A stretch of DNA of 64,000 nucleotides from Takakia lepidozioides (lineage: Eukaryota > Plantae > Bryophyta). A program made the position numbers and the translations under genes. Positions 1 to 56,951 of the stretch are shown here, in pieces. The first letter of the stretch is position 1, and each line of letters starts with the position of its first letter. The stretch lies in NCBI GenBank assembly GCA_030704615.1, contig CM060731.1, positions 79,794,001-79,858,000 of the forward strand, written 5' to 3'. Below the pieces are notes generated by a model. It searched no databases. It worked only from the letters and a program-made list of their open reading frames with translations, and had not been told where the DNA came from.

Positions 1-1058
1 GGTTTCACGCACTTCTTGGCCATGTGCCCTGGCTCCCCGCAATTAAAGTACACCCCATCGAAGGTTGTCTTCTATCCGCCATAAGCCGCCGCACTTGATT
101 TTTCTTTCGGAACACCTAGTGCCGCCTCGACGTGCAAAGGCCCTTCCTTCGATTTCCATGTGCCATTGTCGCCGCGTGGCCTATCCCACTTCTTTTCCGG
201 TCGGAATGAGTCAGCCTCCCGCAGGATCTTCTTGTGGTTCAGCTTCGTATTGCCCTGTCGTTCGCCCCTAGGGACATCCGAGAAACATTCAGCCCTTTCA
301 ATTGCCTCGTTCAAAGTCTTTGGTGGCCTCTCCTCCAACTTCCGTCTGGCCCATGGGGCCTGTCCCGCCACAAAGTTGAAGACCATTGTTGGCCCCGCCA
401 TATCCGCGACTTCGAGCAACAACACATTGAAAGCCTGAACATATCCCCGAATGTCATCCGTTTGCTTCAAGTTCCTCATCTTGTCCCGGGCGAGCCAGGA
501 CGCGTTGAGAGGCATAAACTGTCTTTTCATAAGTTCCTTGAACCCACTCCAGCTCAAGGTTTCTGGGTTTGGCCCTTGGTCTCTGCCACCATTGTTGAGC
601 ATAGCCCCTCAAATAGGTGGGAGCCACTTCCACCCGATCCTCGTCTCTCAACTTGGCCACTCGGAAGTACTGCTCCAGCTCCAAGAACCAAGTGTTGAGT
701 GCCTTTCCATTTTGGACGCCCTCAAAGGTGTCGGGTTCCTTAGGCTTCACCTTAAACTTCGCCTTTGTGGAAGTGGCATTAGGCGCCCTCATCACGTCTT
801 TCAACGTCCCGCCAAAATGCGCCAACAACCCTTCTCAAAAGGCTACTGGCATGGGAGACATCTGTTGGTCTGGCGGAGCCTTTGGGAAGTCCTCGGGCTC
901 CGACTCCCCGGATTCCTCCCGCTCTTGAGCGGCCTCGCTTTCAGAAGCATAAATCGCCTCTTCCATTTGCCGCTTTGGTGACACGTCGCCCCACCGGGCT
1001 CACTGAGATCATCGTCTTTCGGGCCGTTCCGCTTTCGCTTTGTCTTGCCCGATCCCAT
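1..1058 (-). pseudogene. gag of the left Gypsy element, frameshifted
   Basis: ORFs 454-828 and 72-602 are consecutive gag pieces in different frames; the first Cys of the CCHC knuckle is mutated to Tyr. Confidence 0.8.
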
Positions 1059-1099
1059 AGTGAGGCCGATCTCAAGGACGATCGCGTATTGAACTCTAA

Positions 1100-1111
1100 G
1101 CTCTGATACCA
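1100..1111 (-). promoter_or_regulatory. Primer binding site complementary to tRNA-Met(i)
   Basis: TGGTATCAGAGC on the minus strand, 2 nt downstream of the LTR terminal CA. Confidence 0.92.
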
Positions 1112-1113
1112 AG

Positions 1114-1830
1114 TGTCGTGCACCTCGCTTTGGTAAACTCCCCTTCAAGTCATAGTTACTCACTTTGATGCGCGTGCCTAACTCCCAAACTGGCCGCCGG
1201 GCCAATTCGGAGCTTCGGCTGCTCACCAGGGCATAACGGTCCCCCTCACACTCCCACTCGACCCTCGACCTCTTGGGCTCAGTGGAAATTCCCTTTGGTA
1301 GATGGTAGTCCGGAACAGCTCCCCACTCCTTGGTCGCTTTCCGGCTCGCACGCTTACTCACTAGTTTTTGGTCACCAACGGGCTTGCACCGTTCTCGGGG
1401 TTACTACTCCCTATATATACTTCTGTAGGTGTATCCACAAGTAGCCAAGTCCAAATCTGGTGCACCACCACTTAGACCCTCGACTATCCCTGTGATGAGC
1501 CACGGTGAGTCTTGGCCCATCTACCACGGCCCCAATGGACCGTGGTGAGTCCCAAGACTCCCCACGACTCCCACCACAAGGCCTCAGCCTCATGGTGAGT
1601 CCTATGCCACCCCCACTATGACTCCCTACGCTACCACCACCCCTCGTGGAGCCCCCACCACCGCAACCCGGTTTGCGGGGCTCCACCTAGTGAGTGCCTC
1701 CGCCTCCTTGAGTGGCCTTCGGCACTCAAGGGCGCTTTAGCCCCCTTTCCTATTTGCTGCCACTACCCCCACCACAGGGGCAGCCCCTCTTGTGTCCCGA
1801 CCCCCGCCCTCAAGGCAAAGGGCCGCGACA
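1114..1830 (-). repeat. 5' LTR (~717 bp) of the left Gypsy element
   Basis: Terminal inverted motifs tgtcgtg (1114) and cgcgaca (1830); TATA-like TATATATAG at ~1411-1419; internal repeated GGTGAGTC/GACTCCC motifs; Copia coding sequence resumes at 1831. The partner LTR is outside the window. Confidence 0.75.
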
Positions 1831-2339
1831 TCATACCTTGAGGAGGAGGTCGACTACCTCGACTGTACCCCTGTCCAATCTGCCAGTCAGCTCCCTAGCT
1901 CTAATGGGAAACGTTCTTTAAAATACTTCTACTGCAAGATGACCAATCATGTTGTTAAGGACTGTCGCAAGCGCATTGCTGCAGAAAAGCAAGCTGCTCA
2001 AAATCTGGACAGACCAAAGGATGTTAGACGCTTGCTTGTCACAGCTACGTCTCCTACTCCTGCAAGGGATACTAGTTGGTACATTGATACCAGTGCCACA
2101 GGTCCCACATGGCCCATGATAGGAGTCACTTTCATACCTACACTTCTTTAGATCCTGCTCAAGTTGTCTATTTAGGAGACAACTCGACTCAATCTATTGC
2201 TGGCATAGGCGATGTATACGTTACCCTTCCTCATGGTGAGCCTATCATTATATCTAATGTTCTTCATGTCCCTGGCCTTACCAAGAACCTCTATTCCATC
2301 AAACACCTTGATTCTTCCAATGGCATAAAAGTATCATGA
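1831..2339 (+). mobile_element. Ty1/Copia remnant: gag zinc knuckle and protease, frameshifted and truncated
   Basis: YFYCKMTNHVVKDC (degenerate CCHC), WYIDTSAT (Copia protease WxxDSGA motif), VYLGDN...GIGDV...NVLHVPGLTKNLYS. Confidence 0.85.
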
Positions 2340-2379
2340 GGGCTGATCTGATTTGGATTGCGCTCTATGTTCAAGAAGC
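2340..2379 (+). mobile_element. LINE 3' remnant, left piece (target of the big insertion)
   Basis: TGC GCT CTA TGT TCA AGA AGC (CALCSRS) continues in frame at 14301 as CAT GAA TTT CTT GAA CAC TGC (HEFLEHC). Together they rebuild the LINE C-terminal CxxCxxxxExxxH zinc finger. Confidence 0.7.
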
Positions 2380-2464
2380 TGTCGTGCGCATACATATCGC
2401 TACACAACTACATCGCTGTCCAAACCACACCACACATATATGCACAATAAAGTAGTCTAGCACA
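2380..2464 (-). repeat. Repeat B, terminal copy (85 bp, TG...CA)
   Basis: Identical by eye to 2824-2908 (tgtcgtgcgcatac...gtctagcaca). Confidence 0.95.
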
Positions 2465-2465
2465 A

Positions 2466-2821
2466 TGATAAGAAAGCTAAAAGGACAAACACTCTCAACA
2501 CAAGAAATATGAAATCCCTCAACATCACTCTTTAAGATAATAGTCGAGCCAGGGGCACCCCAAGCTATGGGGACTCCACCCCACAACAACCTACACTCCC
2601 ATCATAAGCACACTCAGATCTGAAGAATGCAGGAGCTCGGTCGCGCAGGCTCAACTCGAGAGAGATGAGCTGCGCGACTGCCGCTCTCGTGAAGATAAGA
2701 CAGACCAGGTGTCAAAACTAAACTTGACACCTGATTTAACACTTGACCTAAATCCAAGTGTTAAATACAAATAACTAGTTTTATTCTAGCTGTTTTCACA
2801 CTGTGCTTATTTAACTTGACA
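2466..2821 (-). repeat. Repeat A, 3' copy (356 bp, TG...CA)
   Basis: Matches 13941-14296 with one mismatch found by eye (a2512 vs c13987). Confidence 0.95.
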
Positions 2822-2823
2822 GC

Positions 2824-2908
2824 TGTCGTGCGCATACATATCGCTACACAACTACATCGCTGTCCAAACCACACCACACATATATGCACAATAAAGTAGT
2901 CTAGCACA
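2824..2908 (-). repeat. Repeat B, internal copy (85 bp) directly after the polypurine tract
   Basis: Identical to 2380-2464; joined to A through the palindrome GACAGCTGTC (2818-2827). Confidence 0.95.
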
Positions 2909-2920
2909 ATCGCCCCCCTA
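2909..2920 (-). promoter_or_regulatory. Polypurine tract (plus-strand primer site)
   Basis: Minus strand TAGGGGGGCGAT immediately followed by TGTGCTAG, the start of repeat B. Confidence 0.75.
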
Positions 2921-3167
2921 GCTGGTGGATAGGTCCCTCTACCTCCAGATAGCTACAAGATGTAATAGCCACAGCCGTACTAAGTCCTCTATCACTGTCC
3001 CTATCGTGCTCAAACTCTATCAACCAAGAGGCCGGGTACAAGAGTAGCCCCATCGTTAGTCGCCGTCTTGCAATCTATGAACTTGAGCCAAGATCTCGTG
3101 TGTTCAAGGTCTCCTAGTAGCTGGGCCTTGCGTTTCTTGTTAGCCTCCATGGTTGTATCCACTCCCA

Positions 3168-6143
3168 CTATCCAATGCAATGTGGACATAACCAATCCCC
3201 ATCCGGAACCATCTCAAGAGGTGGAGTCAAGCATCCCATATGCCAACCTCTAGAGCACCGATCACACACCAGCATGGTGGCTGCCCCTTTAGCAGACCCA
3301 CACAACATGCACCTCAAACCTGCAGATACCACTGCCAGGTTTGGGTCAATCCTGCCATCGACATTCGGAAGGTGACATGGCGCACAATTACGCACATGGT
3401 CCTTCCAAGTTATGCCATCCCGACCCTCCAAGACCAAGACGCCTGAGGGCAAGACCTCTCGAACCCTCAAAATAACACGTCCTGCAGTCACATCCAGGGT
3501 CGTAGGAGCAGTCTGCTGCAGATAGACATAGTCACCAGGGTTGAATCTCCGAACCCCAGGACGATAGCCCCCACCACGTATGGTAGCATACCTCAACGTA
3601 TCACGGTGTTGTGCAATGGCAAGGTTCTCGAAAGCCATGGGCATGACTCTCTTGAACAACTCTGCACGCTGCTCACATGCACGTGCCCACACGTCCGGAT
3701 CGTCAAGGTTAAGAACTGTAGCAGCTTCTCTGCGAATGGATGTAGGCAAATCCGGCTCTCGGCCAAAGAGAAGAAAGTATGGTGAGAAGGAGGCAAGTGA
3801 TGCTTGCTTGCTGAACCTGTAGCCCATGGCTAACCAGGGTAACTGAAGGTCCCAATCTCCTAGGTGTCCCTTCTGCAAGCCATACTTGCGCAAACCCCTC
3901 TTTACTGTCTGAACAACTCTCTCTGCCAAGCCATCGGCTTCAGGATGATCCCGAGAAGTGGTGCGGTGGTCTATCAAGGCCTTGTCACACAAAGCCTGAA
4001 ACTCCCCCAAGAACTCTCTCCCTTGGTCCGTGAGTACCTCAGCTGGAGCACCGAATCGGCTAAGCACACAATCCAGGAATGCATACGCAGCTCCCTCACT
4101 AGCCTTATCAGGCAATGGAACCAATTCAATCCACTTGGAGAAGTGCTCCACCATCACCAACACGTACTTGTTGTGGCGCATGGTCAGTGGCAACGGCCCT
4201 GCGAAGTCAAGACTCCACCTGTAGCCCAATCCCATGATCGGAAGAGGGTGCAATTGTGGAGTAGGGGCGTTGAATGAAGCACGCACCCTGTCACACACCA
4301 TGCACCTAGCCACAAATTGTTGCACCTCTGTGTGCATACCACGCCACCAATACTGCCCCTGCAGTAGACTATGAGTGCGTCGCACCCCAAAATGCCCCAA
4401 CTCCTCATGGGCATGCCGCACTAACCGTGCCCGCTGTGTTGGGTGAGGCACAATCCTCACTCGACCATCCTCCCACACTCGGAGCAGGTGTGTCCCCTCC
4501 CACCTGAACCTCTTGGCTCGTTGTAGGATCCGATCCCTCTCCTTGGCAGTCATAGTGGCTGCCGTGTCTCCACTGCGGAGGTAGTCCAACACAACTGAAT
4601 CCTCATGTATATCTTTGGCGCCACCCTGCTCATTGCTGGCCTCAGGGTCCTCAGACACTTGATCTACAGTCATCCCTGTTGTAGGTCCAACCTGGCCTTC
4701 CGCTGCCAAGATACACAGAAATGCAGATGCATGCCATCCGGGCACCATCTCCTCGTCCGTCTCACCATGCCACCGAGCTCCAGTGTCATCCTGCTGGCTC
4801 GTGCATGGATTGCGACTCAACCCATCTGCATTTCGATTGACCAAACCCGGTCGATGCACCACCTGAAAGTCATACTCTTGAAGGATGAGTGCCCACCGTG
4901 CAAGCTTCCCCGTAAGCTTGTCTGACTCCATCAACCACTTGAGTGGTTGGTGATCCGTGACAAGGGTGAAGAGATTGCCGTATAGATAGCACCTGAAGTG
5001 TGCCACGGCCCACACTGCAGCTAAGCATTCTCCCTCATATGAGCTATACTTAGACTCTGCAGCATTGTTCGAGCGGCTAGCATAAGCCACTACGAACTCT
5101 CTTCCCTCATCATCCACCTGTGTGAGCACCGCTCCAAGCCCCAGCATGCTCCAATCTGTATGCAGCTGAAAAGGACGCCCCCTGATAGGTCGTCTCAAGA
5201 TGGGCGCCGAGGTCAACCTCGCCTTGAGCTCTTGAAAAGCTTGTTCTTGCTCATCTTCCCACTGCCACTCCTGGTCCACCTTGGTCAGCTTGGTTAGAGC
5301 CTTTGCAATGGCACTAAATCCCTTAACAAACCGTCTGTAATAGTTTGCTAACCCCATGAAAGCTCGAACTCGGCTCACATCCGTGGGGCGTGGAACCTGT
5401 GCAATGGACTCTACCTTAGTCTGCTGTACCCCCAATCCTCCAGGATATATCATGTGACCCAGATACTCAATCTGGTTGTGGAAAAACTTGCACTTGCCCG
5501 GATGTAACTTCAATCCGTGCGTCCTCAAGCGCTCAAATACCCCCTGAAGGTGTCTCTCATGCTCCTCCACCGTAGCACTAAAGATGATGATGTCATCTAT
5601 GTAGCACCGAGCAAACTCCACCCCTGCTAGAATCCTGTCCATGACTCTTTGAAACTCAGCGGGAGCGTTTTTAAGCCCAAATGGTAAGAACCGCCACTGG
5701 TATAGGCAATCCTTCCCGTGCTCATTGATCCCCCAGAATGCCGTCTTTTGCTTATCCGCCTCCTTGATCGGCAACTGGTGATATCCGGATCGTAAATCCA
5801 ACGTGCTAAAGACCTTGGAATGCCCAATGGCATCAAAGATCTCCTCTGGTGTTGGCATGGCATACCTATCGGACTTGGTCTGACGATTTACAGGCCGGTA
5901 ATCACCGCACATACGTCTCTCCGTCCAATTGCCATAGACATCCTTCTTAGCTGGCATCACTGTGGCTGAAGCATACTCTCCACCAGAGAGCTCCACCAAA
6001 CCTGCCTCCCAGAGATCTTGAGTCCTCATCTGAATCAAAGACCTCTCCATGTCACTGTATCTATAGGGTCTCCGAAAGATTGGCGTGTCAGTGGCCAACT
6101 CAATACGGATCTCTTGACCCTTCAGTGCTCCCAAGTCCTTCAA
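3168..6143 (-). CDS. pol: reverse transcriptase - RNase H - integrase (HHCC, DDE core) - C-terminal PHD finger
   Basis: Open 991-aa frame: RMCGDYRPVN, STLDLRSGYHQ, LPFGLKNAP, YIDD (Gypsy RT); LHTDWS...EGECLA (RNase H); HEELGH...CMVC, SLDFAGP, VLTDQGREF, HPEADGLAER (integrase); CMLC...CDRC...HMGC...WLCPHC (PHD, ~3177-3311). The frame continues upstream to a stop at ~6304. Confidence 0.95.
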   Translation of the reverse strand: MKDLGALKGQEIRIELATDTPIFRRPYRYSDMERSLIQMRTQDLWEAGLVELSGGEYASATVMPAKKDVYGNWTERRMCGDYRPVNRQTKSDRYAMPTPEEIFDAIGHSKVFSTLDLRSGYHQLPIKEADKQKTAFWGINEHGKDCLYQWRFLPFGLKNAPAEFQRVMDRILAGVEFARCYIDDIIIFSATVEEHERHLQGVFERLRTHGLKLHPGKCKFFHNQIEYLGHMIYPGGLGVQQTKVESIAQVPRPTDVSRVRAFMGLANYYRRFVKGFSAIAKALTKLTKVDQEWQWEDEQEQAFQELKARLTSAPILRRPIRGRPFQLHTDWSMLGLGAVLTQVDDEGREFVVAYASRSNNAAESKYSSYEGECLAAVWAVAHFRCYLYGNLFTLVTDHQPLKWLMESDKLTGKLARWALILQEYDFQVVHRPGLVNRNADGLSRNPCTSQQDDTGARWHGETDEEMVPGWHASAFLCILAAEGQVGPTTGMTVDQVSEDPEASNEQGGAKDIHEDSVVLDYLRSGDTAATMTAKERDRILQRAKRFRWEGTHLLRVWEDGRVRIVPHPTQRARLVRHAHEELGHFGVRRTHSLLQGQYWWRGMHTEVQQFVARCMVCDRVRASFNAPTPQLHPLPIMGLGYRWSLDFAGPLPLTMRHNKYVLVMVEHFSKWIELVPLPDKASEGAAYAFLDCVLSRFGAPAEVLTDQGREFLGEFQALCDKALIDHRTTSRDHPEADGLAERVVQTVKRGLRKYGLQKGHLGDWDLQLPWLAMGYRFSKQASLASFSPYFLLFGREPDLPTSIRREAATVLNLDDPDVWARACEQRAELFKRVMPMAFENLAIAQHRDTLRYATIRGGGYRPGVRRFNPGDYVYLQQTAPTTLDVTAGRVILRVREVLPSGVLVLEGRDGITWKDHVRNCAPCHLPNVDGRIDPNLAVVSAGLRCMLCGSAKGAATMLVCDRCSRGWHMGCLTPPLEMVPDGDWLCPHCIG

Positions 6144-6172
6144 ACTGAAGGCAAAGCAATTCCTGTAAGCCC

Positions 6173-7824
6173 TCAGGAACCGCCGTATACGTCGTCTCTC
6201 TCCTCCGGTGACAATGGGTCCAATGTCAGGCTCCCAATTGTCCTCCGTAACTGCAACCTTAAGTCCAGTGGGCTTAGAGGTAGAGGACGCGTCCCGTGGT
6301 TGCTATGCTGCAACCTCTTGAGCAGTACCCCTTCCTGCTCAGTCAATGACAAGGCCTCATCCTGCCCCATCATCTCATCATTGAGAACCTCCTCATCCCG
6401 AGAAGAATCCCCAACCTCATCCATCACAGCTGCCTTCGCTGCCAACTCCCTCTGAACCTCGAGCACCTCCCACATGTGCCATGGATGTCTACACCTCGTG
6501 GTCCTCACCGGCTCGCCCCCACTCGCTGCCTGTACCGTCTCGGTAGGCAGAGAGACCATCAAGGGAAGTGCACTCCGCACTCTACGTTGCTCAGCCATAG
6601 CCAAGCTGACAATCCAGGTCAAGCAATTGAGATCCATTGCTTGCCCCAACACCTGACGACGTGATGCCTCAGAAAGAGAAGGCACCGCCGTGGTCCCAGT
6701 GGAAAACCCCATAGCCCGCTCTCGCTCGTCGGCATTAGGCTCCACTAACTGCTGCAACTGAGCATCCCACAGGAGGCCAGGTCCACCATCCCGAAAAGCA
6801 TGGGATCCTGGGAAGCTGAGCAGTGTAGGTAATGCTGCTCGTGGTTGACCCACCCTGTTGACCACTGCCAAAGGCGAACGGTCATCGTGTCTCACACGTT
6901 GAGACTGCCTTCCTGTGTCCAAAATGCCATCCACGGTGAGGTGTGCTGGCCGCTGCACCCCATCAAATGCACGCTTGAGCAGTGCGGGTGGCATCAAGTT
7001 AGTCCACCATAGTCGTGGACGATGAGCCCGTGACCCCACTGCAGCTGCATCCAGCAATACTGCTGACCCAAGCCACGACCGGACTTGATGCACACTGGCC
7101 ATCACCCTGGCCCGAGAATCACCCATCAGTGGCACATTCTCCAAGATGTATGCCGGAGATACAGCCTGATGAAGCTGCAAGTGGCGCAAAATCCGCACCA
7201 TCTCCCAAAACAGACCCGTCCTCGAGTCTCGCAATCCATTGCCATGCCCGGCTGATGAATGCCCTTGGCAGGGCCAACCTGCCACTACCAGATCAATGGA
7301 GCCAACCCGCTCCAAATCCTGCGCCCCCAGCAACGCAATGTCTGCTGGCAAGGCCTGCTGATATCCACGAACTGCAGACACCGGCAACAACTCAGGGGCT
7401 GCTGCACCATCTGAGCAACATGGCGCAGTGAGACGCGTCGTGCAGTCTCATCCCTCTCCACATACAGGTAACGTCGAACTCGTACACCTGCCTGCAGCAC
7501 TGCAGCCAATCCAGTGCTGATCCCGCCAAATAAGTCCAGAAGGCATATGCCTTCATCCGGTCGCTGCCACACAAGAGGTGTGGTGTCCAATGGCGACAAC
7601 TGAGGTGGCCCTGGTGCAATCACCGCACTCTCCTCCTCTCCTGACGGTACAAAAGCTTCTACCCAAGCTTGTTGCACCCGTCCATCAGCAGCGTGCTGCA
7701 AATCCTTGCTCGTACCCCACAACGGAGTGTGAGCAACCATGGCAGGCAACTCCGCCGTACCATGCATGTCATCCTGCTCTGCTGGAGGTGGCACATCCTC
7801 TGCATGGGCATTGCCTTCCAGCAA
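6173..7824 (-). pseudogene. DNMT3-like cytosine-5 DNA methyltransferase domain inside the polyprotein (core ~7550-6610), one internal frameshift near 7395
   Basis: Motif I LDLFGGIS, II YVERD, IV DLVVAGWPCQG, VI YILENV, VIII AHRPRLWWTN, IX ERERAMGF, X RRQVLGQAM, in canonical (non-permuted) order, spread over ORFs 7285-7824 and 6173-7390. Confidence 0.92.
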
Positions 7825-10496
7825 CTCTCCAGGCCACTAACTGCAGCTGTGAAGGCGGCTAGTGTTGGCATCTTGCCCCGCTGAGCAGCTGCAATACCCC
7901 CAATGAATGTCACAGGGAGCTGTGCACGGCGACCATCCCCTGACTGCCATCCAGGCCTGTAGGATGCTGACTCCTCCCAGAAATCCAGGGTGAAGCCCAT
8001 GGGGTATAACACTGCCCCACCAACGAGGACATCGTAAGAGACCGCGTCTGTCACAATGGCCTTGGCTCGCATCACTGAGCCATCTACAGGATGATCCGGC
8101 TGCAGTCTAATAGCCAACTGATGCCGTGTCATGCCGCGAGCCTGCTCTGATCCTCCCAGAGATGTCTGTATCTGGAAAGGACAAGGCTCCATATCCGCCT
8201 CCATGAGGCCCAAACCTGCAATAGCAGCTCTGCCCAACATCAGTGGCTGAGCTCCTGAGTCCAACAAGACCCGCAGTGGCCGGTACTTCTTGCCTGCCGG
8301 TCCACTCAAAGTGAAAATGCCTCCCTGGTTGTCTAACAAGACAACTCCAGGTGTCACCATGGCGCGCTCAAAGGCTGGCCTAGCTGGCAGCTCCGTCAAT
8401 CTGGCAGCTGCAGCTTGCCAGGGCGCTGCCGTGGCAGTCTTGACCCTCAAATCCGAGGATCCCTCTGCCACTACACCTTCCACTAACTCCGCAGAAGATG
8501 AAGTGACCTCTCCACTCTCACAGAGTGTTGCTGCTAGTCTGAACACTGCAGCTGGTCTCACTCCCGGCGTCGCAATCATGGTTGCCGAGAACAGTGGGGC
8601 TTGACACACAGAGGTGGCTGCTCCCAATAACACACCGGCTGCACTAGCCTTGGTAGCAGGTGTCAGTGCTGCACGTGTAGCTCTTCCCAATGGCATAGTA
8701 ACCTCCGCCTCGGTAACAGTCGGGCGAGAACTAGGTGCCATGGATGGCGTTGACACTGTCTCCGCCAAGGTGAATGACTGAGGCAGCCTTGCCTGACGGC
8801 TTGCCTCCCCACGTTGTGGATCCAACTCCACCTCTGCACCTCGTGGCTCAGGAACTCGTGTTGCTCCTCGAGTCACGGCTGCAGCAGACTCCACCTGCTC
8901 TAATGGTAGTGCTGCTCCGCACATGAATCCCATTCCGCCCATATCTCCTCCCTCAGGAGCAGGAGGTGGGCCATCCCGCCTGGGAGCCGGTACCGCCTGA
9001 GCTATAGCCATGGCAGCGAGCCTCTGCTCTAGCTGCTGAAGCCGATTGGCCATGCCTTGGTCAACACCCTGACCTCCGCGTCCTTGGCCATGTGGAGGTT
9101 GCCCTTGGCCTGCACCTCGTGCCCGACCACCTCGTCCTCTTTGGGCTGGTCCACCTCGCCCCCGGCCACCATTGTTCCCTTGGAACTGGCCTGGGCGCAA
9201 CTCAGGATGCAAGTCATAACACTGGGCATCTCCATGCCCATACTTGCCACAATGCCCACACTGCAACTGTGCAGGCTGTGCTTGTGCCGGCCTTCTGCCA
9301 CTCTCTGGGCAATCTCTCTTGACATGGGGTCCTCCACATGTCCAACATATCACCCCTGGTTGCTGTTGGCCTGCAAAAGATGCCACGGGCCTCTGCACCT
9401 GAGGTCCCCTGTAAGCTCCATGGAACTTGGGCTGGGCAACCTTGCCCCCCTGACCACGCTGTTGGGCAGTCCCTTGTGCTTGTGGGCTGACAGCTGTGCC
9501 CCGTACAGGCATGTCCTTGCCAAATCCAATTGTAACAACTCGCTCCTCCACCATGTTGAGCTCAATCCGCTCAGCCAGCAGAAACACATCTGCTAATGTG
9601 GGTTGGGCTGCTTGTAACAGGGTTGCATCCGCACCCTTCTCCTGAGCTCCTTGTCCAAAATTCCATACCAAACTGGATTGCCTGAGCTTCAGTAACCCCT
9701 TGGGTCACACTTATCAAGCGCCTCATACGAGTGTACGCCTCTCGCAGGCTCTCACTGGGTTTGCGCTGGAAGTCTTGCAAACTTCGCAGCTTCTCTGTCC
9801 GTACACCTTGGTAGTTCCTCCGCAACTCCTGGAAGAACTCCACCACCGGGTTGAATCTAGGCAATTGTGTTGTAGTCGTGGCAGGAGAAGCACCTTTTGA
9901 ACTGGTACCACCTTCAGAAGTACCAGCACTACTTGCTCCACTACTAGTGCTGGCAGTGGGAGCTATTGGTACTGATGCAGCTACTGGTCGCGTCGTGCCT
10001 CGAGTAATGGAGACGTAGTCAGGTGACCAATACATCCTCCACTCCTCAATCTCTGCTTCATGTCCTCGCCTGAACTCGTGGTAATCGTCCATAGGCGGGC
10101 CTTCCAAATGCTGGAACAGTCCCTTCCACGCCATGAATGGGGTGAATAGCTGTGGATTGCGCATCTGCTGCAAATCACACCAGCTGTCGAACTCCTGGAT
10201 AAAGTCATCCAACTCGATTGTGCCCACAGCTCCAGAGTACCTACGAGGCCCCTTGGTAGCTCCATACATCACCTCCATGTCGTCCCACAACAATGGCGAA
10301 TGAAAGTGCACACCTGTTGATGAAGCCTCCGAGTCTGTGTCTGACGCTCTACAGTAGTTGAGGGTGGCGGTGAAGGTGGTCTGAACCGAATACCTCGTCT
10401 TGTGACCCCACTCTCACTGTCACTGCTTGTAGCCGTACTCCCCTCAAAACCCTTGGGTAACTCCGTAATGACACTCACAATGTGCACCTCCTCCAC
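7659..10496 (-). pseudogene. gag (capsid-like region + two zinc knuckles) and aspartic protease, frameshifted
   Basis: LDDFIQEFDSWC...QKPSESLREAYTRM-type gag; CWTCGGPHVKRDC and CGHCGKYGHGDAQC; protease LRVLLDSGAQ...DVLVG. Pieces in ORFs 10269-10496, 9571-10311 and 7659-9671 join after small indels (QF-WYGILDKELRRRVR-DATL). Confidence 0.88.
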
Positions 10497-11015
10497 GTGA
10501 CACTATAAGGCTCTAGTACTAATCTAATAGTGACACGGGTGGGCACCTGTTGCAGTCTAAGGGTCATATCCCAATGGCTCAGGGCACCTGCACCTGCATC
10601 CACCGCAAGAACTCCTATGGTTGGCTGGTCATCAACCCAGCCTCACCATAGAAGAAACACTGGTGGTCTTGCTGGTCATCACTCCAGCCTCACCACCGAC
10701 AGCATACTCTAGGATTGACCGGTGATCAAATCCGGCCTAATCCCTATGAAAGCAAGCGCCCACACAAAACCAACATGGCGCACAGTCAAGCATGCAGGTG
10801 TTGGGGGGGATCCAAACACAAGAAATCAAAACATCAACACCCCCACACCAAAATCCAGCAGCAACGCTGATCCTGCAGAATATCCCAGCCCAAAACCCCG
10901 GACTGACTGGCCTCCACCAAGAGAGGCTTTGGCAACTACAAGTACAAGGTAATGAAAATAGTACAGAGATGGAGGGGAAGAATAGAAGCCCGCCCAAGCA
11001 AGATCTAATCCTGAT

Positions 11016-11765
11016 CTATGCTATCAACTTCCAGACTTCTCTCAAAGTGCCTCGCTCTGCTTGATGGTAAGGTGTAGGAGGTATATCTATGTCCAGAAAC
11101 CTGCCACTAACCTTGTCCCAAGCTACAGTAGCTCGCTCTAACCAACCCTCCTCCTCTTTCTGCCAGGTAGAGACAAAGCAACACTCTGCTATCTCCCGCT
11201 CACTGAACACTAAAGAAAACAAAGGTAGGGTCTGATAGTCTCTCAACTCGAAAGCTTTGAGACGATTGCGGGTGTCTTCATTGCGAATGACTGCATCGCC
11301 TTCAAACAGAACAAACTTGTCCTCGCTAATGAACCCCCGCTCGTGGTTGCCTTGTGCAGAGCGTGTCCGACTGCAACACTGTCTAATTGCACAAACTTGT
11401 GCAGCTCCTGCTCCTCTGCTCCAGTACACCACGGCCTTGTGGCTGAACACCTTGGTCCCCGGGGCTGTCTTTGGCTGTGTTCCAAGCCTAGCTTTCACCC
11501 ACTTTGGTATTTCACCTACAGCTGCAGAACTGCTGGCTCCAACAGAGTTCTGACTGTCCAAGGCGATATTGAGGCCCTCAATGCCAACTACAGCAGTCTG
11601 TTGTCTACTGCTAATGCCTGACTCCCAGTATGCAATCAACTCGTCCAACTGTTCTCCACTCAAATCAGTCTGAGTTCCTTGGGAAACATAAATCGTGTCC
11701 CCTTGTGTGCACAGACTAAGAGAAGAGACCTGCCCTTCAATTACGTCCTCATTTCCCCCAGCCAT
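11016..11765 (-). CDS. Extra ORF upstream of gag inside the element, unknown function (249 aa)
   Basis: ATG-initiated intact 249-aa ORF on the same strand as gag-pol; no motif recognised. Confidence 0.55.
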   Translation of the reverse strand: MAGGNEDVIEGQVSSLSLCTQGDTIYVSQGTQTDLSGEQLDELIAYWESGISSRQQTAVVGIEGLNIALDSQNSVGASSSAAVGEIPKWVKARLGTQPKTAPGTKVFSHKAVVYWSRGAGAAQVCAIRQCCSRTRSAQGNHERGFISEDKFVLFEGDAVIRNEDTRNRLKAFELRDYQTLPLFSLVFSEREIAECCFVSTWQKEEEGWLERATVAWDKVSGRFLDIDIPPTPYHQAERGTLREVWKLIA

Positions 11766-12332
11766 GCATGGAGTACATCCACCAATTTGTCTCTCATATA
11801 GACCAGCACAGGTTCTAGAGACAGGATTGTGGATCTTTCATGGCACTCTCACACTCTAAAAATTCCATAGATTTTTAGCAGAGTCCCAAAAACGAAAACC
11901 AGGTTTAGATAGGTAGATTTCCCCTTTCTGCAGCTATCCCCCCAAAAACTGGGTCAAACAGAGTCCATTTGACAAAGATATGACCAATTAGGCTCTAAAT
12001 CCTTTAAATTAGATCAAAAGATTTTTATTTTATTTTTTTTAACACCCAAACGTTCTCGTCATTACAACCTGTTCCCAGGTTATCTACGGGTTCCCGAGGC
12101 CGTTCCCCGACTATGCTGACTCCGGGTCTTTGCTCTCACGGGACTTCATGTTCGTCATTGCCCAGGGAGAGAAGCAAGACGGACGCAGACGAGGGCAGCG
12201 ATGGCCAAGCCTGCGCGAGCAAGCAGGAACAAGGAGGTGGTGTGGGGTGTTGGCCGATTCGGCCGATCAAAGGGTTGCGCATGAGCAGCTTGCATGCTCG
12301 TCAATCTCCAAAGCCATGCAGCAGAGATGCCT

Positions 12333-12400
12333 GCTCCTGGTTCTGCTCCGTCAGCTCCTACCAGCTCCTGGTTCTGCTCAGTCAGCTCCTACCAGCTCCT
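12333..12400. repeat. 31-bp tandem repeat, ~2.2 copies
   Basis: gctcctggttctgctc(c/a)gtcagctcctacca at 12333 and 12364. Confidence 0.85.
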
Positions 12401-12487
12401 TGCTCTTAAAGGTTGTCCACTCAACCTCTCTCAAGCTGAGCGACCTAGAGACTACAAACAACATGCTTCGGCATCTCTCGGGAATCC

Positions 12488-12832
12488 ATGGCGCATGCGT
12501 TGCTTGTGAAGCCTTTGGTTCTGGTTAGTCCCAGGATTTGCAGCTCAATTCAGCACCAGCTCCGACAAACCGCCTTCTTGCCTCTCCCTCTGAGATCTGC
12601 AAGGACGAAATGTGTCGCTTCCAAACCATCAGCAAGCTTGACTTCTGAAGGATTCTGGACTCCTTCATCCAGTGACAGTCACCAAGTCTGGTTCATGAGG
12701 AGTGATCTGGAGTTACCCACCTCAGCTTATGCTTATGAGGGGCCAATTGCTCAGGGAGGGCAGGGCCCATCACCCATGTTGGCTGAGCGATTCCAAAGCG
12801 TGATCACTCAGCTTTTTCAACAACGAATCATT
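12488..12832 (+). pseudogene. ClpP5: Captured 5' fragment of nuclear-encoded plastid Clp protease subunit ClpP5 (transit peptide to start of the protease domain), antisense to the element
   Basis: MAHA...FWTPSSSDSHQVWFMRSDLELPTSAY...QGGQGPSPMLAERFQSVITQLFQQRII matches my recollection of the ClpP5 N-terminus (LWTP...VWSIRDDLQVPSSPY...QGQGPPPMVQERFQSIISQLFQYRII); similarity stops abruptly. Confidence 0.8.
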
Positions 12833-12919
12833 ATACCTTGGCTGGCCGATACTGCCCGTTCCAACTGGAGTCGGCATTTTGTGTCTTCACAAAACCAAAC
12901 AAAACCAAACTGCAGGAAT

Positions 12920-13590
12920 TCGCGATTGCCTCAGTAAAGTGGAACTCAATCTGCAGCCGCTGGTGCAATGGGACCTTGCCAAGCAGCCCCTTCTTGATGT
13001 CAATCTGCAGCTCGCGCAAAGGAAGCGCAGCAAGAAAAACTCCTTCACAAATTGACGGCAGGCACCTCTTCCAACATGCACCACCTCAGCAGCAGCAAGG
13101 TCCAAGCCATTGGGTTTTTCATCAAAGGCGACAAGTGCAGTTACTGGGGAAATCTGCTCACCCTCAGCCTGCAGGTCCCCCTTTCTATATCAATTGCTCA
13201 TACAACCCTTCTTAGAACCCTGTGTAGGAGCTTTCCGGATGTTTTTCCCTGCAGCCATGACGGACACTGTGAACGGGAGCTTGGCCTTCAACGCTACTGC
13301 CTGTTTGCGCTTCGAACATACGATTGTGATCTGCCCACCAAGCCAAGGTGTCTGCCACCGTACTCCCCCGCTGCACGGATGGCATGCAGCTCAGTCTTTC
13401 AACCCGTTTTCTTTTGGTGGAATTCTGGCTCAAGCGGGGAGCTATTTCTGGAGCTCGTGTTTACCACCCTCCTACAACTGGCAACGAGAGAAACCCTACC
13501 AGCTGCTATACGACAGTGGTTTCAGGACCTTCGTCCAAGTAGCTATGGATCCTTTATCCTGCACAGCCTTTCGACAAGATCATTGTGATC
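12920..13590 (+). pseudogene. Possible second captured fragment, degenerate F-box-type gene
   Basis: SRLP...KWNSICSRW...TLPSSPFL resembles the end of an F-box motif, and IVICPPSQGVCHRTPPL resembles the VxNPxT...LPP motif of F-box-associated domains; frameshifted and weak. Confidence 0.3.
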
Positions 13591-13928
13591 GAGGTCTGTC
13601 CTCAGAACCTCGCACTCGAACTAGATCGCAGCTTGCTTCTGCAGGTAGCTTGCAAGCGTGGAATCCCGTCTTCCCCTTTCAATCATAGGTTATGGTGAAC
13701 ACATTCTTCTGCTCCCCCCCCCAAATCAACTTCCTCCAAAATACATCGCTCCTGTGCAACAACAACAAAACGGAAAACACTTCTTGGACGAGCTTGGTAT
13801 GGCTTATAACGAGTTGGAGAACCACGTTGTCATCAAGCATGCCGCTCTCTTCACCTTGACCATCGACATAGTGCTAACATAAAAGAACTCTATCTAGCTT
13901 AGCACTACAAGAAAACTAGATACAGCCA

Positions 13929-13940
13929 ATCTCTCTCGAG
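13929..13940 (-). promoter_or_regulatory. Non-tRNA primer-binding-like site, complementary to a segment of repeat A
   Basis: atctctctcgagt (13929-13941) is the exact reverse complement of actcgagagagat (14129-14141); there is no TGG-initiated tRNA PBS next to repeat A. Confidence 0.7.
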
Positions 13941-14296
13941 TGATAAGAAAGCTAAAAGGACAAACACTCTCAACACAAGAAATATGCAATCCCTCAACAT
14001 CACTCTTTAAGATAATAGTCGAGCCAGGGGCACCCCAAGCTATGGGGACTCCACCCCACAACAACCTACACTCCCATCATAAGCACACTCAGATCTGAAG
14101 AATGCAGGAGCTCGGTCGCGCAGGCTCAACTCGAGAGAGATGAGCTGCGCGACTGCCGCTCTCGTGAAGATAAGACAGACCAGGTGTCAAAACTAAACTT
14201 GACACCTGATTTAACACTTGACCTAAATCCAAGTGTTAAATACAAATAACTAGTTTTATTCTAGCTGTTTTCACACTGTGCTTATTTAACTTGACA
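13941..14296 (-). repeat. Repeat A, 5' terminal copy (356 bp)
   Basis: 355/356 identical by eye to 2466-2821; followed by the TSD AAGC. Confidence 0.95.
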
Positions 14297-14300
14297 AAGC

Positions 14301-15071
14301 CATGAATTTCTTGAACACTGCCTGGTGTGCTACCCCAGGCAAAAAGAGTTTGGTTCTTGGTGATAAGATTCTACTCTAATTGGGAAGCTCTTCTAGTTCT
14401 CTCCCTCTCCTCCCTCTCCTCCCTCTTACTTCTTAATATTAGACATGGCAGACCTATGCTTAGGTGCGTCGTGTGGGGATGTCTGAGAGCTCATACCCTC
14501 TAGTCTATTTGGAAGTCAAGATGTGCTTGGATCTTCCAGGGTAAACCCCCAGTCTCAGATTTATGTTGTTTCACATCTATGTTGATCTAGGGGAGGAAGA
14601 CTTGGGTCAGTGTGGAACTCTTCCCCGAGCTTCAGATCGACGCAAGATGCAACTTTTCCAAGAGTTTGATCTCACCTGGGGCAAGAATGGCCTCCTCGGC
14701 ACTCGTGTTTCCAACCCTTCCGTTCAGTGGAAAGACTCCGTCCCCCCTCAATGGGAAATCCCCGGCTGAAGACGAGGATGTAGACTTTAAGCGACGCCAC
14801 AAACGTACGTGATTCTAAGTTGAAAACACAACTTAAGTTTTAGTACTCCAGCCGTTGGTAGGAGGCCTCCTCTGTCGGACTCGGATACAATCCAGCTACT
14901 GCTCCTCCCCATCTTTTGCCTCCCAAGTCACCTCTATGTTTTCCCTGCTGTAAGCCTTTACTGGCCCTGAGTGGTTATTTTTTCCACTTTGCTTAAATAC
15001 ATTTCCAGGGCCTCTGTCTCCATGTTCTCTTGAAACACTCTTTTCCCTGTTTTATTAAAAAAAAGAAAAAA
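14301..15071 (+). mobile_element. LINE (L1-like) 3' remnant, right piece, ending in an A-rich tail
   Basis: Zinc-finger continuation HEFLEHCL...QAKRVW, C-terminal ...FQEFDLTWGKNGLLG...W, then TTTATTAAAAAAAAGAAAAAA at ~15051-15071. Confidence 0.6.
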
Positions 15072-15667: not shown

Positions 15668-18600
15668 ATGGTGCGAATGGATCTGTTCCGGTCGGAGGAG
15701 ATGAATTTGGTGCAGCTCATCATCCCCACGGAATCGGGACATGACACGATTACATACTTGGCGGAGCTTGGCCTTCTCCAATTCAAGGACGTGAGTGCCT
15801 TGACTTGAAATTTTGAGAGAGAAATTGTTGCAATAAATGCCATCTATCAATTATTGCTTGTTTGCATCAAGTAAAACCTGTTCATATGACGCAACCATAA
15901 TAATTTTTTATAGCTTTACAGACAGTCCAAGGGCCTTGCTGCCAGTCCTCTCTGTGTGGGAGCAGTAAGTAGGGGGAGCATAAGGACTTCTTTTAATATA
16001 ATGCGTATTAGTCTCGAGGGGTATTGGGGCAATGCATGGTTTTTATTGTTGGCTGGCGCGGGTATCGAACATTGATTTCCAGAGACCTTTGGGGACATCG
16101 CTCCTCCAGGTATTCAAACAGAATTATCCTAACGCCACGAGCCAACCCCTCACCCACCAACCTGGCAACGACTATGTGTAGCTTACAATAAATGGATGAG
16201 CAAAATAAGCTGGCATTGTAGCACCTTAGATGACTAAGGAGCAGTTCGAAATCAGCCTCATTCTCCAGCACGGTACCAATGCCAGTCAATAAATCAGCAT
16301 CAAAGCTGATTACCAGAGTGGCATCAGCTGCGCAGTATCACAATGATAACTTTTGGGTTAGACCCTGATGAGCTAAAACCCTGCAACCAGCTGCTGGAAA
16401 GTATCCCCCTGGATCCGACTATGAAATTGTTCATACCTTGTCTGTGCCCCTTGTGTCTGTGAGTTTTGACAATTCCGAAATTGGAAAACTTTCTGGGTGT
16501 GAATTTGGAGGAAAACTTTGGAATCATATTGATGCTGTGGCAAGAACTTCCATGATTGTAAGGCCAGATCCAGCTTTATTTACACACCTCAAATACAGTA
16601 CTGGATTAATAGGACCCCATTGCCCTGCCTTGCCCCTTTCACTCCGATCTGGGCGGGGGGTTGACAATACTGGGCATTTGTAGTCTGATGAGTACATCTT
16701 TGTCTGGAAAATTGGGCAAATATGTGCACCTTCTATGTGAGATTGCTTTTATGGCTGATGGTGTGTGTGTGTCATGGCAGCTCAATCCAGACAAGAGTCC
16801 GTTTCAGCGAACTTATGCCAACCAGGTATGTTTCTAAGTCCAGACTGAATCAGATGTCTGATTTCTCATCATTCAATCTTGGGAAAACGTGTGGGTTTAT
16901 TGTTGATTGTGGTTTGCAGGTTAAGCGATGTGCAGAGATGGCAAGGAAATTACGATATTTCCAGGATCAAACTGCTAAAGCTGGGCAGATGCCAGCACCA
17001 AGGCCTGCAAGTGACAAAGACATTGATCTTGACGAGCTTGAGGTAACTTGCTTCGGCAAGGATCACAAAATGTGCATGTCCTGTCCAGTAACACTCCCTG
17101 GGTCTTCACACATGGTACTGTTGAGTACCAGAGGGAAGGCTGTGCTGAACAGACTGAAAGTGGATATCCAATTATCACTCAATTGGCATCACTCATTGAC
17201 TATACGTACACTTTGTATTAGGCCTTGGATGTGCCCACTTTCCATGTGAATTAAAGGTACAGGTTTCTGGCTATGTGGCAATAGGTCAAGCTCGGAGAGC
17301 TGGAAACAGAGCTTTTAGAGATCAATGCGAACAGCGAAAAACTGCAGCGTGGCCATAGTGAACTTAAAGAGCTACAGTTTGTGCTACAAAAGGTGATTTT
17401 CTGAATCCTCAGGTGCCACTTGTTAGCCCACTACAAGGGCAAGAAGATTTAGAGCACCCTAATGGTGTGTCATTGTGAAATGAATATTGTCTCATGCAGG
17501 TCAACAAGATATCAATGCATATTGTTGTAGGGTACTTTTAAAGTGGCCCTTCATATTTGACGGACGCTGTTTTAAGTTGCCCTTCTTATGACAGCTGGTT
17601 TCATATAGTGTCCTTCGTAAAGACGGGATTGTATTGGACCCCACTTTTTCATTTGCAGGGCAACTTTTTGCCATGGCCTGGTTTGAAGGGCAAGAAGGGC
17701 GTCAAAATTAACCATTGATGTGGATGTTGGCAAAAGGTTTCCCAATTTGCAGAGTTGTTCAAGTGTACAAATTGTTATGTGTGTCCCTAGGCTGGGGCTT
17801 TTTTCAGTTCAGCACGGAATGTGGCAAACATTCAGCAAAGGAGGGCGGAACTGGAAGAGTCCTTGGTGGAAGGGGAAGACATCGACCATCCCCTTCTTTT
17901 TGAGCAGGTACCATATATTGTTCTTGCCCGTCACTGTATGTATTATTTGTATTGACAATGCACATACTTCCTTGTGGACCTCAAGTCTCTACAAAATTGA
18001 TTGAAGTGTAGACCTTGCCAGCATATTTGCATTCACAGACCGTTTGATGTGAATGTTAACTCGAAGGCATAGTTCTTGTAGACAAACCCTGCCGGATCCT
18101 GTCATGGGGTTTTAAGCTATCATGACTGAAATTGGGCCTAAAACTGCAACAGCGGTTGTAACAACTCAGGACAATCTGGTAGCAGGAGATTAAGGGACGT
18201 TTAAAGAGTTGGTCTTATCGTCTTAATAAAAATTGCCATTTAAAATTCTGGCACTGCTACCTTGGTCCTAAAACTCAACACACATATTGTAGTATGTGGC
18301 TATGGTGCACGGCCAGTCACCTGCAGAGAGAAAAGCACAGAAGGTAGTCCCCTCCCTCTGCTAGATGTGACACATATACCCAGTAAACGAAGAGAGAGGG
18401 AGGGACTGGGACTAAGGGGAGGGGGATGTTGCAGGAGATGCAAACAGATCCAGGCAAGCAAGTCAGGCTTGGGTTCATGACAGGTCTCGTGCCTGCGGCA
18501 AAGGCTCCGCTTTTTGAGCGCATCCTCTTTCGAGCTACCCGTGGTAACATGCTCCTCAAACAAGCCCCTGTTGACCAGCCTATCATGGATCCTGCCACTG

Positions 18601-43500: not shown

Positions 43501-44272
43501 GGGCAGAGACTGTGGGAGATGAGGACATTCCAAGCTCACTGTTAGCTGCTTGTAAGGGTGCGGCTGAGCCAGTTCAACGGCACTATGACCGTGTGCTGGC
43601 TAGCGGAGCCATTTTGCCAAAACCATCACTGCGTTTGCGTATTCTTCGTTCCGTCCTGACAGTGATGCGGGAATGGACTGTGTCTGTTCTCTCTCAACAA
43701 ACAGGGACAACTCTGGCAGGAGGGTCATTATTGTTGGGGATTGGCTTGAACCAAGAACAGAGTAGCATCAGCCAAGGCATGCGCGACAAGTTGGGTAGCA
43801 TGGCGAATCGGTAAGAATACTAATCCTTTAAGTCCCTTTCTGCTACATCCTGATCTTGGGGCCACAACTGCTATGGTCTTGTAAGTAACCCATCTCTTTG
43901 GCCCCACCCTGGTGGTCATGGGATTGAGGATCCCCTTACATGTATGGTCCCAATTTCACCTCTCATTACTCTTCTGCTGGTGATGGTTGATGAGTATCTA
44001 TTTCTCCCTCTTTCAACTTACTTTGTTGTAGTAAAGCTCAATCTTATGGCCAGACTTAAGTGGCTGTGAGAGCAGCTCCAGAGAGACGTTGTGGCCCCTG
44101 GAGGGTAAAGGTGGATCTAAACAGTTGTTCCAGTGCTGACACCGCTAATTGGATTTATGATTTGTTTTGGGTCAGTTATATGACGGAAGTGCGGAGGCTG
44201 GCCTTGCCACCAACAGAAGTGGACCCGGTATCTCGGGGTTTTCGGGAGCTTGAAGAGATGCTTCAGGGCTAA
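31564..44272 (+). CDS. NUP155: Nucleoporin Nup155, 14 exons: 31564-31725, 32475-32644, 33244-33370, 33742-34004, 34259-35656, 35990-36302, 36698-36910, 37268-37515, 40883-41327, 41649-41863, 42218-42593, 42902-43120, 43485-43810, 44176-44272
   Basis: RYSSHPYSTPPKEWPP...ELPPVLIERYNSAGGQGTALCGIFPGIRRAWATVDDTLFLWRFDK, DGQCPEYSGEEQAICAVGLA, GELATQHLLPRR, FSGAHEGLCLC, LKSITQLYNDYA; consistent GT-AG phases. Confidence 0.96.
37640..37930 (-). mobile_element. LINE 3' fragment (second family) in Nup155 intron 8
   Basis: Shares the tail AAAGAGCTTATGGGACAAGAAAGCAAG and AAGAAATGTCCTTC (minus-strand EGHFF zinc-finger piece) with 39815-40080 and 54170-54230. Confidence 0.55.
37940..39634 (+). mobile_element. 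5'-truncated degenerate LINE (RT domain to 3' end) in Nup155 intron 8
   Basis: HIFTLSQII, FLDVKKA*DTVWRDGLW, IDQGV...TLSPLLFNVFIN, ALMLVDDFA, ANVSKC: non-LTR RT motifs with stops and frameshifts; 3' tail shared with 20170-20887. Confidence 0.85.
39815..40810 (-). mobile_element. Degenerate LINE 3' fragment (second family) in Nup155 intron 8
   Basis: Same tail and zinc-finger remnant as 37640-37930; the extent beyond ~40100 is approximate. Confidence 0.5.
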
Positions 44273-55900: not shown

Positions 55901-56037
55901 TTCCTTTCGTACTTTCGTTGTTCATATGCTCAGCTTTCAAAAAAAGGCAAAGACAGTCATTTACTATTCACATCTTTAGATATTGCCAGCCACACAAACA
56001 TTTTTTTCATTTACAAATTTGTTTAGGGCATTTGTTC

Positions 56038-56119
56038 AGGCACCTTAATATGATCTAAAGGGTCTGAAATGAAAATGAATTTTTTTTTGTCAGACCCTTT
56101 AGATCATATTAAGGTGCCT
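56038..56119. repeat. Perfect 30-bp inverted repeat with 22-nt spacer; Tourist-like mini-MITE or hairpin
   Basis: aggcaccttaatatgatctaaagggtctga (56038-56067) / tcagaccctttagatcatattaaggtgcct (56090-56119); the GGCACC...GGTGCC core is flanked by TCA/TTA. Confidence 0.85.
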
Positions 56120-56951
56120 TAGAAAAAATAACCAAGACAGGAAGCCGTATAGCATATACAGCGCAACTCAAAAATCAACCACCTGGGGCTAAGCTCTACC
56201 CCCAAATCTAGGTTTTACTGTTTTTTCCATTGACTTCGAAGTCAGCATTGACCAGACGAAAAACATACTAATCGAAATTCACTGGCATGTGGTACAGATT
56301 GGGGTGTACATGATAGGATGTGCTGCAGGGAGATACGCTTACCTGGATTACTACAGCAGAGTTTGAACAACGGACTTGTTTCATGTAAACTAGTAGATGT
56401 AGAATTAAATCTCTTGAAATATCACCGTAAGCATAAACGTGCAACCCACATAAACAGACTGCCTCAACAAATCCAATCCAATTGGCGAACTTGGATCAAC
56501 AAACACTAGGGAGCACCACATCAGGATGCTTGTTACACTTAAAACGTGTGTACACAGGCTTTTCTAGTGAATATCTTTTTAATAACTTCTGATAACTCTA
56601 GTCGAGCCATTTCAGAAAGTCAATTCTATGGTTCCACACACATTCGTTATCATTATTTGGTTCTTGGCATTAGTTGCGTGCTACACAGTTTAGACACTTG
56701 AAAACTGATGTAACATTACTGGGCATGATATGGACCAGACATGGACCACTCATGCAACGACTGTCGTAAGAGTAACACTGTGTTATACAAGGAGCCGAAT
56801 GTTCACGAGAATCGCAGGCGAAGAGGTAAAATGAACAAAAATCGATTTACTGACCCCTGACAAAGACGATGAAACAAACATACCCACACCCCACTAATGT
56901 ACGACATTCGACGCTTCACAATAACCAAGAATCATACAACCAGGAAAGCCA

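Follow-up and report, generated by a model that had tools for sequence, protein, structure and literature searches.

Why retrotransposons keep a silencing enzyme of their hosts has been an open question since 2018, confined to dinoflagellates and Klebsormidium. The DNA analyzed here, a stretch of 64,000 nucleotides that we call the window, raises this question for a land plant: on its minus strand, at 2380-14296 in window coordinates, lies an 11.9-kb Ty3/gypsy element with a DNA methyltransferase (DNMT) domain. On balance, we lean toward reading it as a young land-plant gypsy element whose DNMT would be made at Gag level by means of a leaky stop codon, packaged, and set to methylate the element's own new DNA before insertion.

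From 5' to 3', the element consists of repeat B1, a 3.7-kb 5' region, Gag, protease, DNMT, a stop codon, reverse transcriptase (RT), RNase H (RH), integrase, a PHD finger, a G-rich tract, and repeats A1, B2, and A2 (Table 1). The order Gag-PR-RT-RH-IN, the DDE integrase, the TG..CA ends, and the short target duplication are those of Ty3/gypsy; the RT (YIDD at 5603-5589) has Ty3 as its closest solved relative, and Gag matches the N terminus of Marchantia Mp4g09160 at 64%. Instead of the two full terminal LTRs of an LTR retrotransposon, split repeats in the layout B-internal-A-B-A were found. Likewise, Pfam placed a PHD finger, and no chromodomain (the chromovirus mark), at the integrase C terminus, and an rve integrase was found instead of a tyrosine recombinase, for which there was no match among the 15 element ORFs scanned. 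Inspection by eye showed no clear tRNA primer site downstream of B1, Rfam gave no match within 2300-14400, and a single weak locus matched in a viral sequence collection. Since the repeats are near-identical and the same four letters stand at both flanks, the insertion is young and integrase-made.

Table 1. Parts of the methyltransferase-bearing element and their positions in the window
Feature	Position	Strand	Remarks
Target-site duplication, left copy, 4 bp	2376..2379		identical 4 letters at 14297-14300
Repeat A2, 85 bp, 3' end of element, terminal CA	2380..2464	-	identical to A1
Repeat B2, 356 bp	2466..2821	-	1 mismatch to B1
Palindromic A1/B2 junction, both element ends joined via 2-nt spacer	2818..2827		shared with 9 related loci, distant L041 and L051 among them
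Repeat A1, 85 bp	2824..2908	-	identical to A2
Polypurine-tract-like G run preceding A1	2911..2921	-	kept before A1 in related loci; presumed role
Pol frame: RT, RNase H, DDE integrase (H2C2, rve), C-terminal PHD (about 3320-3171)	3168..6302	-	unbroken, 1044 aa; Pfam
TAG CAA CCA, in-frame stop with type I readthrough context UAG-CAR-YYA	6297..6305	-	sequence context, family conservation
DNMT-to-stop linker	6306..6580	-	reading frame broken near 6327 in this copy
DNMT3-type C5 cytosine methyltransferase catalytic domain, motifs I-X	6580..7560	-	frame break near 7397 in this copy
Protease-DNMT linker	7561..7900	-	frame break near 7835
Aspartic protease, DSG at 8267-8247	7900..8300	-	weak Pfam match, E 0.04; same region in relatives scores Asp_protease_2
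Gag, two CCHC-type knuckles (9347-9309, 9260-9219)	8300..10278	-	Retrotrans_gag E 5e-4; frame breaks near 9669, 9628
5' region, 3.7 kb, without recognised domains	10279..13940	-	Pfam, Rfam scans
Repeat B1, 356 bp, 5' end of element, begins TG	13941..14296	-	1/356 mismatch to B2
Target-site duplication, right copy	14297..14300		matches 2376..2379

The 5' region holds a 273-codon open frame upstream of gag (11016-11837, minus strand) with no Pfam match. Within its 12100-13900 part, which has no Pfam or Rfam match either, contig depth is several hundredfold below that of the coding part, so this part may be subfamily-specific or captured DNA.

The host setting was read from a 14-exon NUP155 gene at 31564-44269 on the plus strand. 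Its protein is 65-68% identical to those of liverworts, Diphasiastrum, and Ginkgo, 57-59% to those of two ferns and Selaginella, and about 55% to those of angiosperms. A 21-row tree built without mosses and hornworts places it, with weak support (80/74), as the sister of four liverworts and not within the group of ferns and seed plants. NUP155 fits a non-seed land plant, probably a bryophyte, and, together with the near-identical repeats and the target duplication, it bears out the original prediction of a recently mobile element in a land plant. The window further contains V-ATPase subunit a exons (about 18400-19600) and fragments of PTH2-like and filament-like proteins (47388-47936 and 58953-59447). 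Window positions 1-1830 hold, on the minus strand, the 5' portion of another gypsy element, which is decayed and has Retrotrans_gag and a tRNA-Met-like primer site near 1100. A copia-like remnant at 1830-2375 (knuckle, protease-like motif) directly adjoins the insertion of the DNMT element. Three diverged 62-bp repeats and a 45-bp hairpin, at 20273-20456 and 56031-56126, are possibly small non-autonomous elements.

We then asked what kind of methyltransferase the element carries. The domain matches PF00145 (E=4e-13; Pfam, minus strand 6580-7560), and its motifs follow one another on that strand in canonical linear order: I at 7539-7510, II at 7470-7447, IV (PCQ) at 7279-7256, VI (ENV) at 7150-7133, VIII (RxR) at 7030-7004, IX at 6727-6704, and X at 6649-6632. 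Motifs I, IV with its Cys, VI, VIII, IX, and X, by which a C5 methyltransferase is recognized, are thus all present and collinear, as had been predicted. The best solved relative is DNMT3A, followed by DNMT3B. A profile built from 32 relatives scored 83 bits on DNMT3A, compared to 42 on a DRM-type chain and 33 on HaeIII, and the DRM-type match was confined to the C-terminal part of the chain, as expected of a permuted enzyme. An AlphaFold model (pLDDT 85) had a TM score of 0.82 to DNMT3A (6f57); the protein modeled was the unbroken relative P0002, which is 75% identical over its C-terminal 271 aa, and not the window copy. Together, sequence profile and predicted fold support the view, also held in the original prediction, that the domain is DNMT3-like and not a permuted DRM.

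The window copy itself, as assembled, cannot make a methyltransferase. Its Gag-PR-DNMT reading has five frame breaks (near 9669, 9628, 7835, 7397, and 6327), while the 3.1-kb RT-RH-IN-PHD frame has none. A single deletion of about 2 nt near 7395 had been proposed: a break is indeed found near 7397, but it leaves the frame one base short relative to unbroken homologs, not two, and it is one of five. The feature edge that had been set at 6173 is an off-frame run-on stop, and the family's frame closes at the TAG at 6305-6303. Sister copies differ from the window by an indel at all five breaks, where contigs insert letters. At 6327, most of the listed bridging contig pieces show a gap versus the window, among them a contig of a different study whose other letters agree with the window over 121 bases. 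As the five losses are short and hardly any substitutions accompany them, the breaks are probably private damage or long-read assembly error and not a family trait. Sequencing-run contigs are dense over the coding part (90,782 records in one run set), which shows a multi-copy family; summed contig depth does not equal copy number.

A DNMT profile search for relatives gave 543 clusters at E < 1e-30. Named relatives are found in three Sphagnum species, Calypogeia, two Marchantia species, and Riccia, and further ones in Klebsormidium (GAQ93235), Closterium, Mesostigma, Chromochloris, and Haematococcus. Marchantia polymorpha "hypothetical" models make up 16 of the 58 long matches and come from more than one assembly; models of this species among the relatives include P0121, P0122, and P0125. 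Gag-protease-DNMT ORFs are annotated there as hypothetical host genes (Mp4g09160, Mp8g17980, Mp6g11220, Mp2g26090, and Mp8g15430). The long matches fall into two layouts: 35 of the 58 have protease-DNMT(-RT), and 22 have RNase H-DNMT-integrase. Of the best 150 representatives, 16 had the first and 91 the second, with 43 left undetermined. Named protease-DNMT rows are streptophytes, and the two named RNase H-DNMT-integrase rows are chlorophytes; a large clade of the latter layout spans P0153-P0178, including P0168 (Chromochloris) and P0175 (Haematococcus). The layouts separate on one branch of the tree (94 and 98*), and in a 38-row tree with open deep forks and no host-DNMT3 root the window falls into one group (98*) together with Marchantia, Calypogeia, and Sphagnum. 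The predicted link to the elements of de Mendoza et al. 2018 is also supported, as GAQ93235 has the same protease-then-DNMT order at 42% identity to the window.

To see whether selection has kept the domain, we compared synonymous and nonsynonymous change between families, for which most dS values are saturated (dS at least 1.6 or saturated, with DNMT dN of 0.16-0.8). In the least saturated informative pair, L041/L051, omega was 0.098 for DNMT, 0.077 for protease, and 0.031 for RT, and for pairs with the window the DNMT omega was 0.12-0.21 where defined and otherwise saturated. Pairs with L039, L067, and L069 (omega 0.5-1.0) were left out as decayed copies, some with apparent hidden frameshifts. 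In decayed copies of the Sphagnum-like family, omega is higher, and the DNMT decays like other domains (9.8 stops per 1000 codons versus 6-16). The check on dN/dS proposed beforehand speaks against neutral evolution, and substitution patterns in these between-family pairs indicate that the DNMT domain is under purifying selection. The element (CpG o/e 0.46-0.57) is not more depleted in CpG than its flanks (0.39-0.57), and neither CpG nor CHG depletion gives a signature of self-methylation in the element, and CpG content points neither way. CHG is depleted in the decayed gypsy element at 1-1830 (o/e 0.66) and not in the DNMT element (0.94-1.2).

The best hint of how the element deploys its enzyme comes from a conserved stop, which the original prediction had missed. 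The DNMT does lie between protease and RT, as predicted; it is not simply embedded in one polyprotein, since an in-frame stop divides it from RT. A TAG at 6305-6303 closes the family's Gag-PR-DNMT frame; it is in frame with RT, and CAA CCA comes next, so that 6305-6297 satisfies by sequence UAG-CARYYA, the type I readthrough motif of plant viruses as given in the relevant passages of PMC5382211. Only this one of the 367 stop triplets on the element's sense strand is followed by CARYYA. For the nine positions of the stop context, family contigs list no variant at or above 2%, while neighboring positions vary.

The same arrangement recurs in related loci. DNMT and the RT start were both present in 58 of 81 loci, with 51 distinct contexts, and the last stop before RT was followed by CAR-YY in 44 of these and by exact CARYYA in 5, against a background of 0.8% and 0.2%, respectively, after 32,093 stop triplets. 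Most of the 44 come from a single Sphagnum-like family (CAA CCC), where YYC stands in place of YYA and an ATG lies three codons past the stop. Counted by family, window included, exact CARYYA was found in 5 of 8, with second codons CCA or CTA, CCA, TTA, TCA, and TCA; one of the five, L080, is decayed and has a second stop. The remaining three have YYC, TAG TAG CCA, and, in an AT-drifted pair, no stop. Across the five exact families, the nucleotide pattern YYA is therefore constant though the encoded residue varies, and DNMT and RT share one frame across linkers of 108, 126, 207, 318, and 327 nt. The L055 and L064 families are without the motif, and P0169, P0383, and P0397 run from DNMT into RT without a stop. 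In the AT-drifted family of L064 and L065, the relatives' stop position is taken by a tyrosine codon. Among long PR-DNMT proteins, 28 of 35 stop short of Pol, and 6 of the 7 that continue are NCBI eukaryote gene models; the Marchantia and Calypogeia proteins, judged from the proteins alone, end 96-100 residues past motif X, matching the place of the stop. Together, these patterns suggest that the stop is likely leaky, with low-rate readthrough. As no slippery heptamer was seen and the relatives are in frame, we rejected a programmed -1 frameshift as the link from DNMT to RT.

Because the stop lies ahead of RT, DNMT would be made at Gag level. In the mechanism that we favor, most ribosomes would halt at the stop, with Gag-PR-DNMT as the main product, and a minority would read through to add RT-RH-IN-PHD. 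The protease would free DNMT inside the particle, where the enzyme would be abundant and could act de novo on double-stranded cDNA, and the copy would arrive premethylated, as camouflage or built-in damping. The PHD finger of the integrase may steer insertion by reading H3 tails. That a retro-DNMT might methylate cDNA is not new, as passages of PMC5890265 already propose it. Relatives without the stop, or with DNMT between RNase H and integrase, indicate that a Gag-level dose is not needed to keep the domain.

Instead of acting on cDNA in the particle, an abundant DNMT might work within the nucleus and methylate integrated copies or the insertion site, silencing the family in trans and damping its copy number. 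A Gag-level dose exceeds the need of one cDNA per particle, and the integrase PHD is closest to the fingers of CHD4, PHF12, KDM5A/B, PHF21A, BAZ2, and UHRF1. Fingers of CHD4, PHF12, KDM5, PHF21A, BAZ2, and UHRF1 are readers of unmodified H3 tails, much like the ADD domain of DNMT3. Nuclear action is also among the options discussed in the consulted text of PMC5890265. However, the PHD sits on Pol and not on the DNMT product, chlorophyte relatives hold the domain inside Pol, at low dose, and the family attained high copy number in its host, and we consider nuclear action unlikely.

The stop could also be bypassed by Ogre-like splicing or by reinitiation, in which case DNMT would still be made at Gag level. 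Its TAG is a possible 3' splice site, preceded in the Sphagnum-like family by a U-rich run, and NCBI models of Marchantia, Riccia, and Sphagnum skip the stop. In the survey text of PMC6317226, Ogre/Tat and other two-ORF plant gypsy elements likewise keep Gag-PR apart from RT-RH-IN, although Ogre elements splice out the spacer between Gag-PR and RT, whereas the window has an in-frame stop. Splicing explains neither the YYA pattern nor the common frame across five linker lengths; moreover, the sequence upstream of the window stop is purine-rich, the four gene-model junctions into Pol that were read all differ from one another, and a short-list donor was found in 1 of 5 families, which is a weak test. 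Across families, no conserved ATG was found downstream of the stop. Taken together, a bypass of either type seems distinctly improbable, and readthrough remains our preferred reading.

Could the domain be kept for binding, for example to hold cDNA ends or the circle junction, or to modify RNA, instead of for methyl transfer? The Klebsormidium Gypsy domain gave no methylation in yeast, which its authors deem inconclusive in the portions of PMC5890265 consulted, and motif IV reads ECQ in 73 and PCQ in 45 of the best 150 representatives. Even so, about 120-130 of these 150 best, distant representatives retain the catalytic Cys, the motif VI Glu-Asn, and RxR, and the SAM-binding motif I is intact, and we give a noncatalytic or RNA-directed role very little weight. 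That the domain is a recently captured, decaying host DNMT3 fragment or an assembly chimera, as the five frame breaks might suggest, is refuted by purifying selection and by its conserved position in elements of liverworts, Sphagnum, Klebsormidium, Closterium, and Mesostigma, with independent contigs spanning the domain and sister copies differing by an indel at the breaks, and has next to no chance of being right.

The split repeats bear on how such an element inserts. The layout B-internal-A-B-A also occurs in L040, L057 (= L060), and L058; L012, L016, L019, and L072 show the 3' part of it. The junction of A and B is a near-perfect palindrome in nine loci, including families about 50% identical in protein, and a 4-bp duplication flanks the window element and all six distinct related insertions with both ends among 18 loci examined. 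Other copies end at A1 (L010, L018, L021, L022, L033/L034, and L069); L018 and L069 have the short form B-internal-A with the duplication. With A placed behind the G-rich tract and CA at the end of B, A+B has the form of an ordinary LTR. We infer that a two-LTR circle (LTR = A+B), opened by the integrase at the palindrome within one LTR, would give the long form, whereas the short form would come from a one-LTR circle; A1 and A2 may also recombine with each other and so give the short form. Long and short end forms, both with 4-bp duplications, thus occur on a DDE-integrase element as if circles were opened within the LTR.

Split direct repeats are otherwise a feature of PAT/Ngaro-type tyrosine-recombinase retrotransposons. 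The window element shares with these, by the layout given in the review file of PMC5890265, the order B-internal-A-B-A and a second, internal occurrence of the junction between the two ends, which points to an intermediate in the form of a circle. Unlike them, it has no tyrosine recombinase that we could find, and it has an rve integrase, TG..CA ends, a PPT-like tract, and a 4-bp duplication. Similarly, SymbioDIRS-Dnmt3 of Symbiodinium combines a DNMT3-type domain with split repeats but is a DIRS element with tyrosine recombinase, in contrast to the DDE integrase and 4-bp duplication of the window; in the portions of PMC5890265 consulted, its domain, the only retro-DNMT shown to do so, methylates CG de novo in yeast.

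The closest known system is KnitGypsy-Dnmt3 of Klebsormidium nitens, with DIRS-like repeats and Ka/Ks under 0.2 according to the same portions of PMC5890265 (de Mendoza et al. 2018). As far as these portions describe it, the two share Ty3/gypsy domains, an intronless, nonpermuted DNMT3-type domain, purifying selection (0.098 for L041/L051), and the DIRS-like layout, found in the window, L040, L057/L060, and L058. They differ in the land-plant host and in the conserved in-frame stop that parts DNMT from RT in the same frame. The paper puts DNMT in the Pol ORF, but the partial model GAQ93235 ends 12 aa past the domain, where a break is possible; its main text contains no occurrence of a PHD finger, whereas the window element has one. 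The window element is therefore of the Klebsormidium-type DNMT3 gypsy kind, set apart by a conserved stop that interrupts the DNMT-RT frame.

Readthrough has parallels elsewhere, and SIRE1 reportedly uses it for its env. In the passages of PMC5382211 consulted, UAG followed by CARYYA is the type I signal of tobamo-, beny-, and pomoviruses; unlike there, the window stop gates all of RT-RH-IN, after a protease and an accessory enzyme. A PHD finger in Gag-Pol and LTR subparts are also described for Chlamydomonas Gypsy-7a_cRei (bioRxiv 10.1101/2022.06.16.496473), which we liken to our element by description only and for which no DNMT is listed, in contrast to the window.

Within a literature search that had subscription journals and Repbase outside its scope, we found no published report of a land-plant DNMT3-gypsy element, no report of readthrough for DNMT-gypsy elements, and no text naming any of six Marchantia gene ids. 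The main text of the PMC6317226 survey mentions no methyltransferase, PHD, Marchantia, or Klebsormidium, and no such elements are described in the consulted parts of PMC6317226, PMC6453930, or bioRxiv 10.1101/2021.02.12.428880. Streptophyte retro-DNMT3 is mentioned in passing in the text seen of PMC12344493, and "Gypsy-DNMT3" in that of bioRxiv 10.64898/2026.05.21.726589; the trees of both may hold land-plant rows. Within this scope, we found no printed description of three features: the lineage in liverworts and Sphagnum, the TAG-CAR-YYA stop, and the chlorophyte DNMT between RNase H and integrase.

A broader picture may be drawn tentatively, and we would call it possible and not probable: an old PHD-gypsy clade, spread across the green lineage, would load its particles with an active de novo DNMT at a capsid dose set by readthrough, methylate its cDNA circle, and integrate with a palindrome-cutting DDE integrase, still mobile in bryophytes, unrecognized in Marchantia, and a transposon-borne source of de novo methylation for land plants. 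The split ends, together with the DDE integrase, point to a circle-based insertion route, and some of the DNMT genes counted in bryophyte genomes may belong to transposons. The conserved stop makes a sharp prediction, namely, that the enzyme would be made at Gag level and the polymerase would be rare. With the copies in Marchantia polymorpha, the question of why retrotransposons keep their hosts' silencing enzyme moves into a plant with genetics and methylomes.
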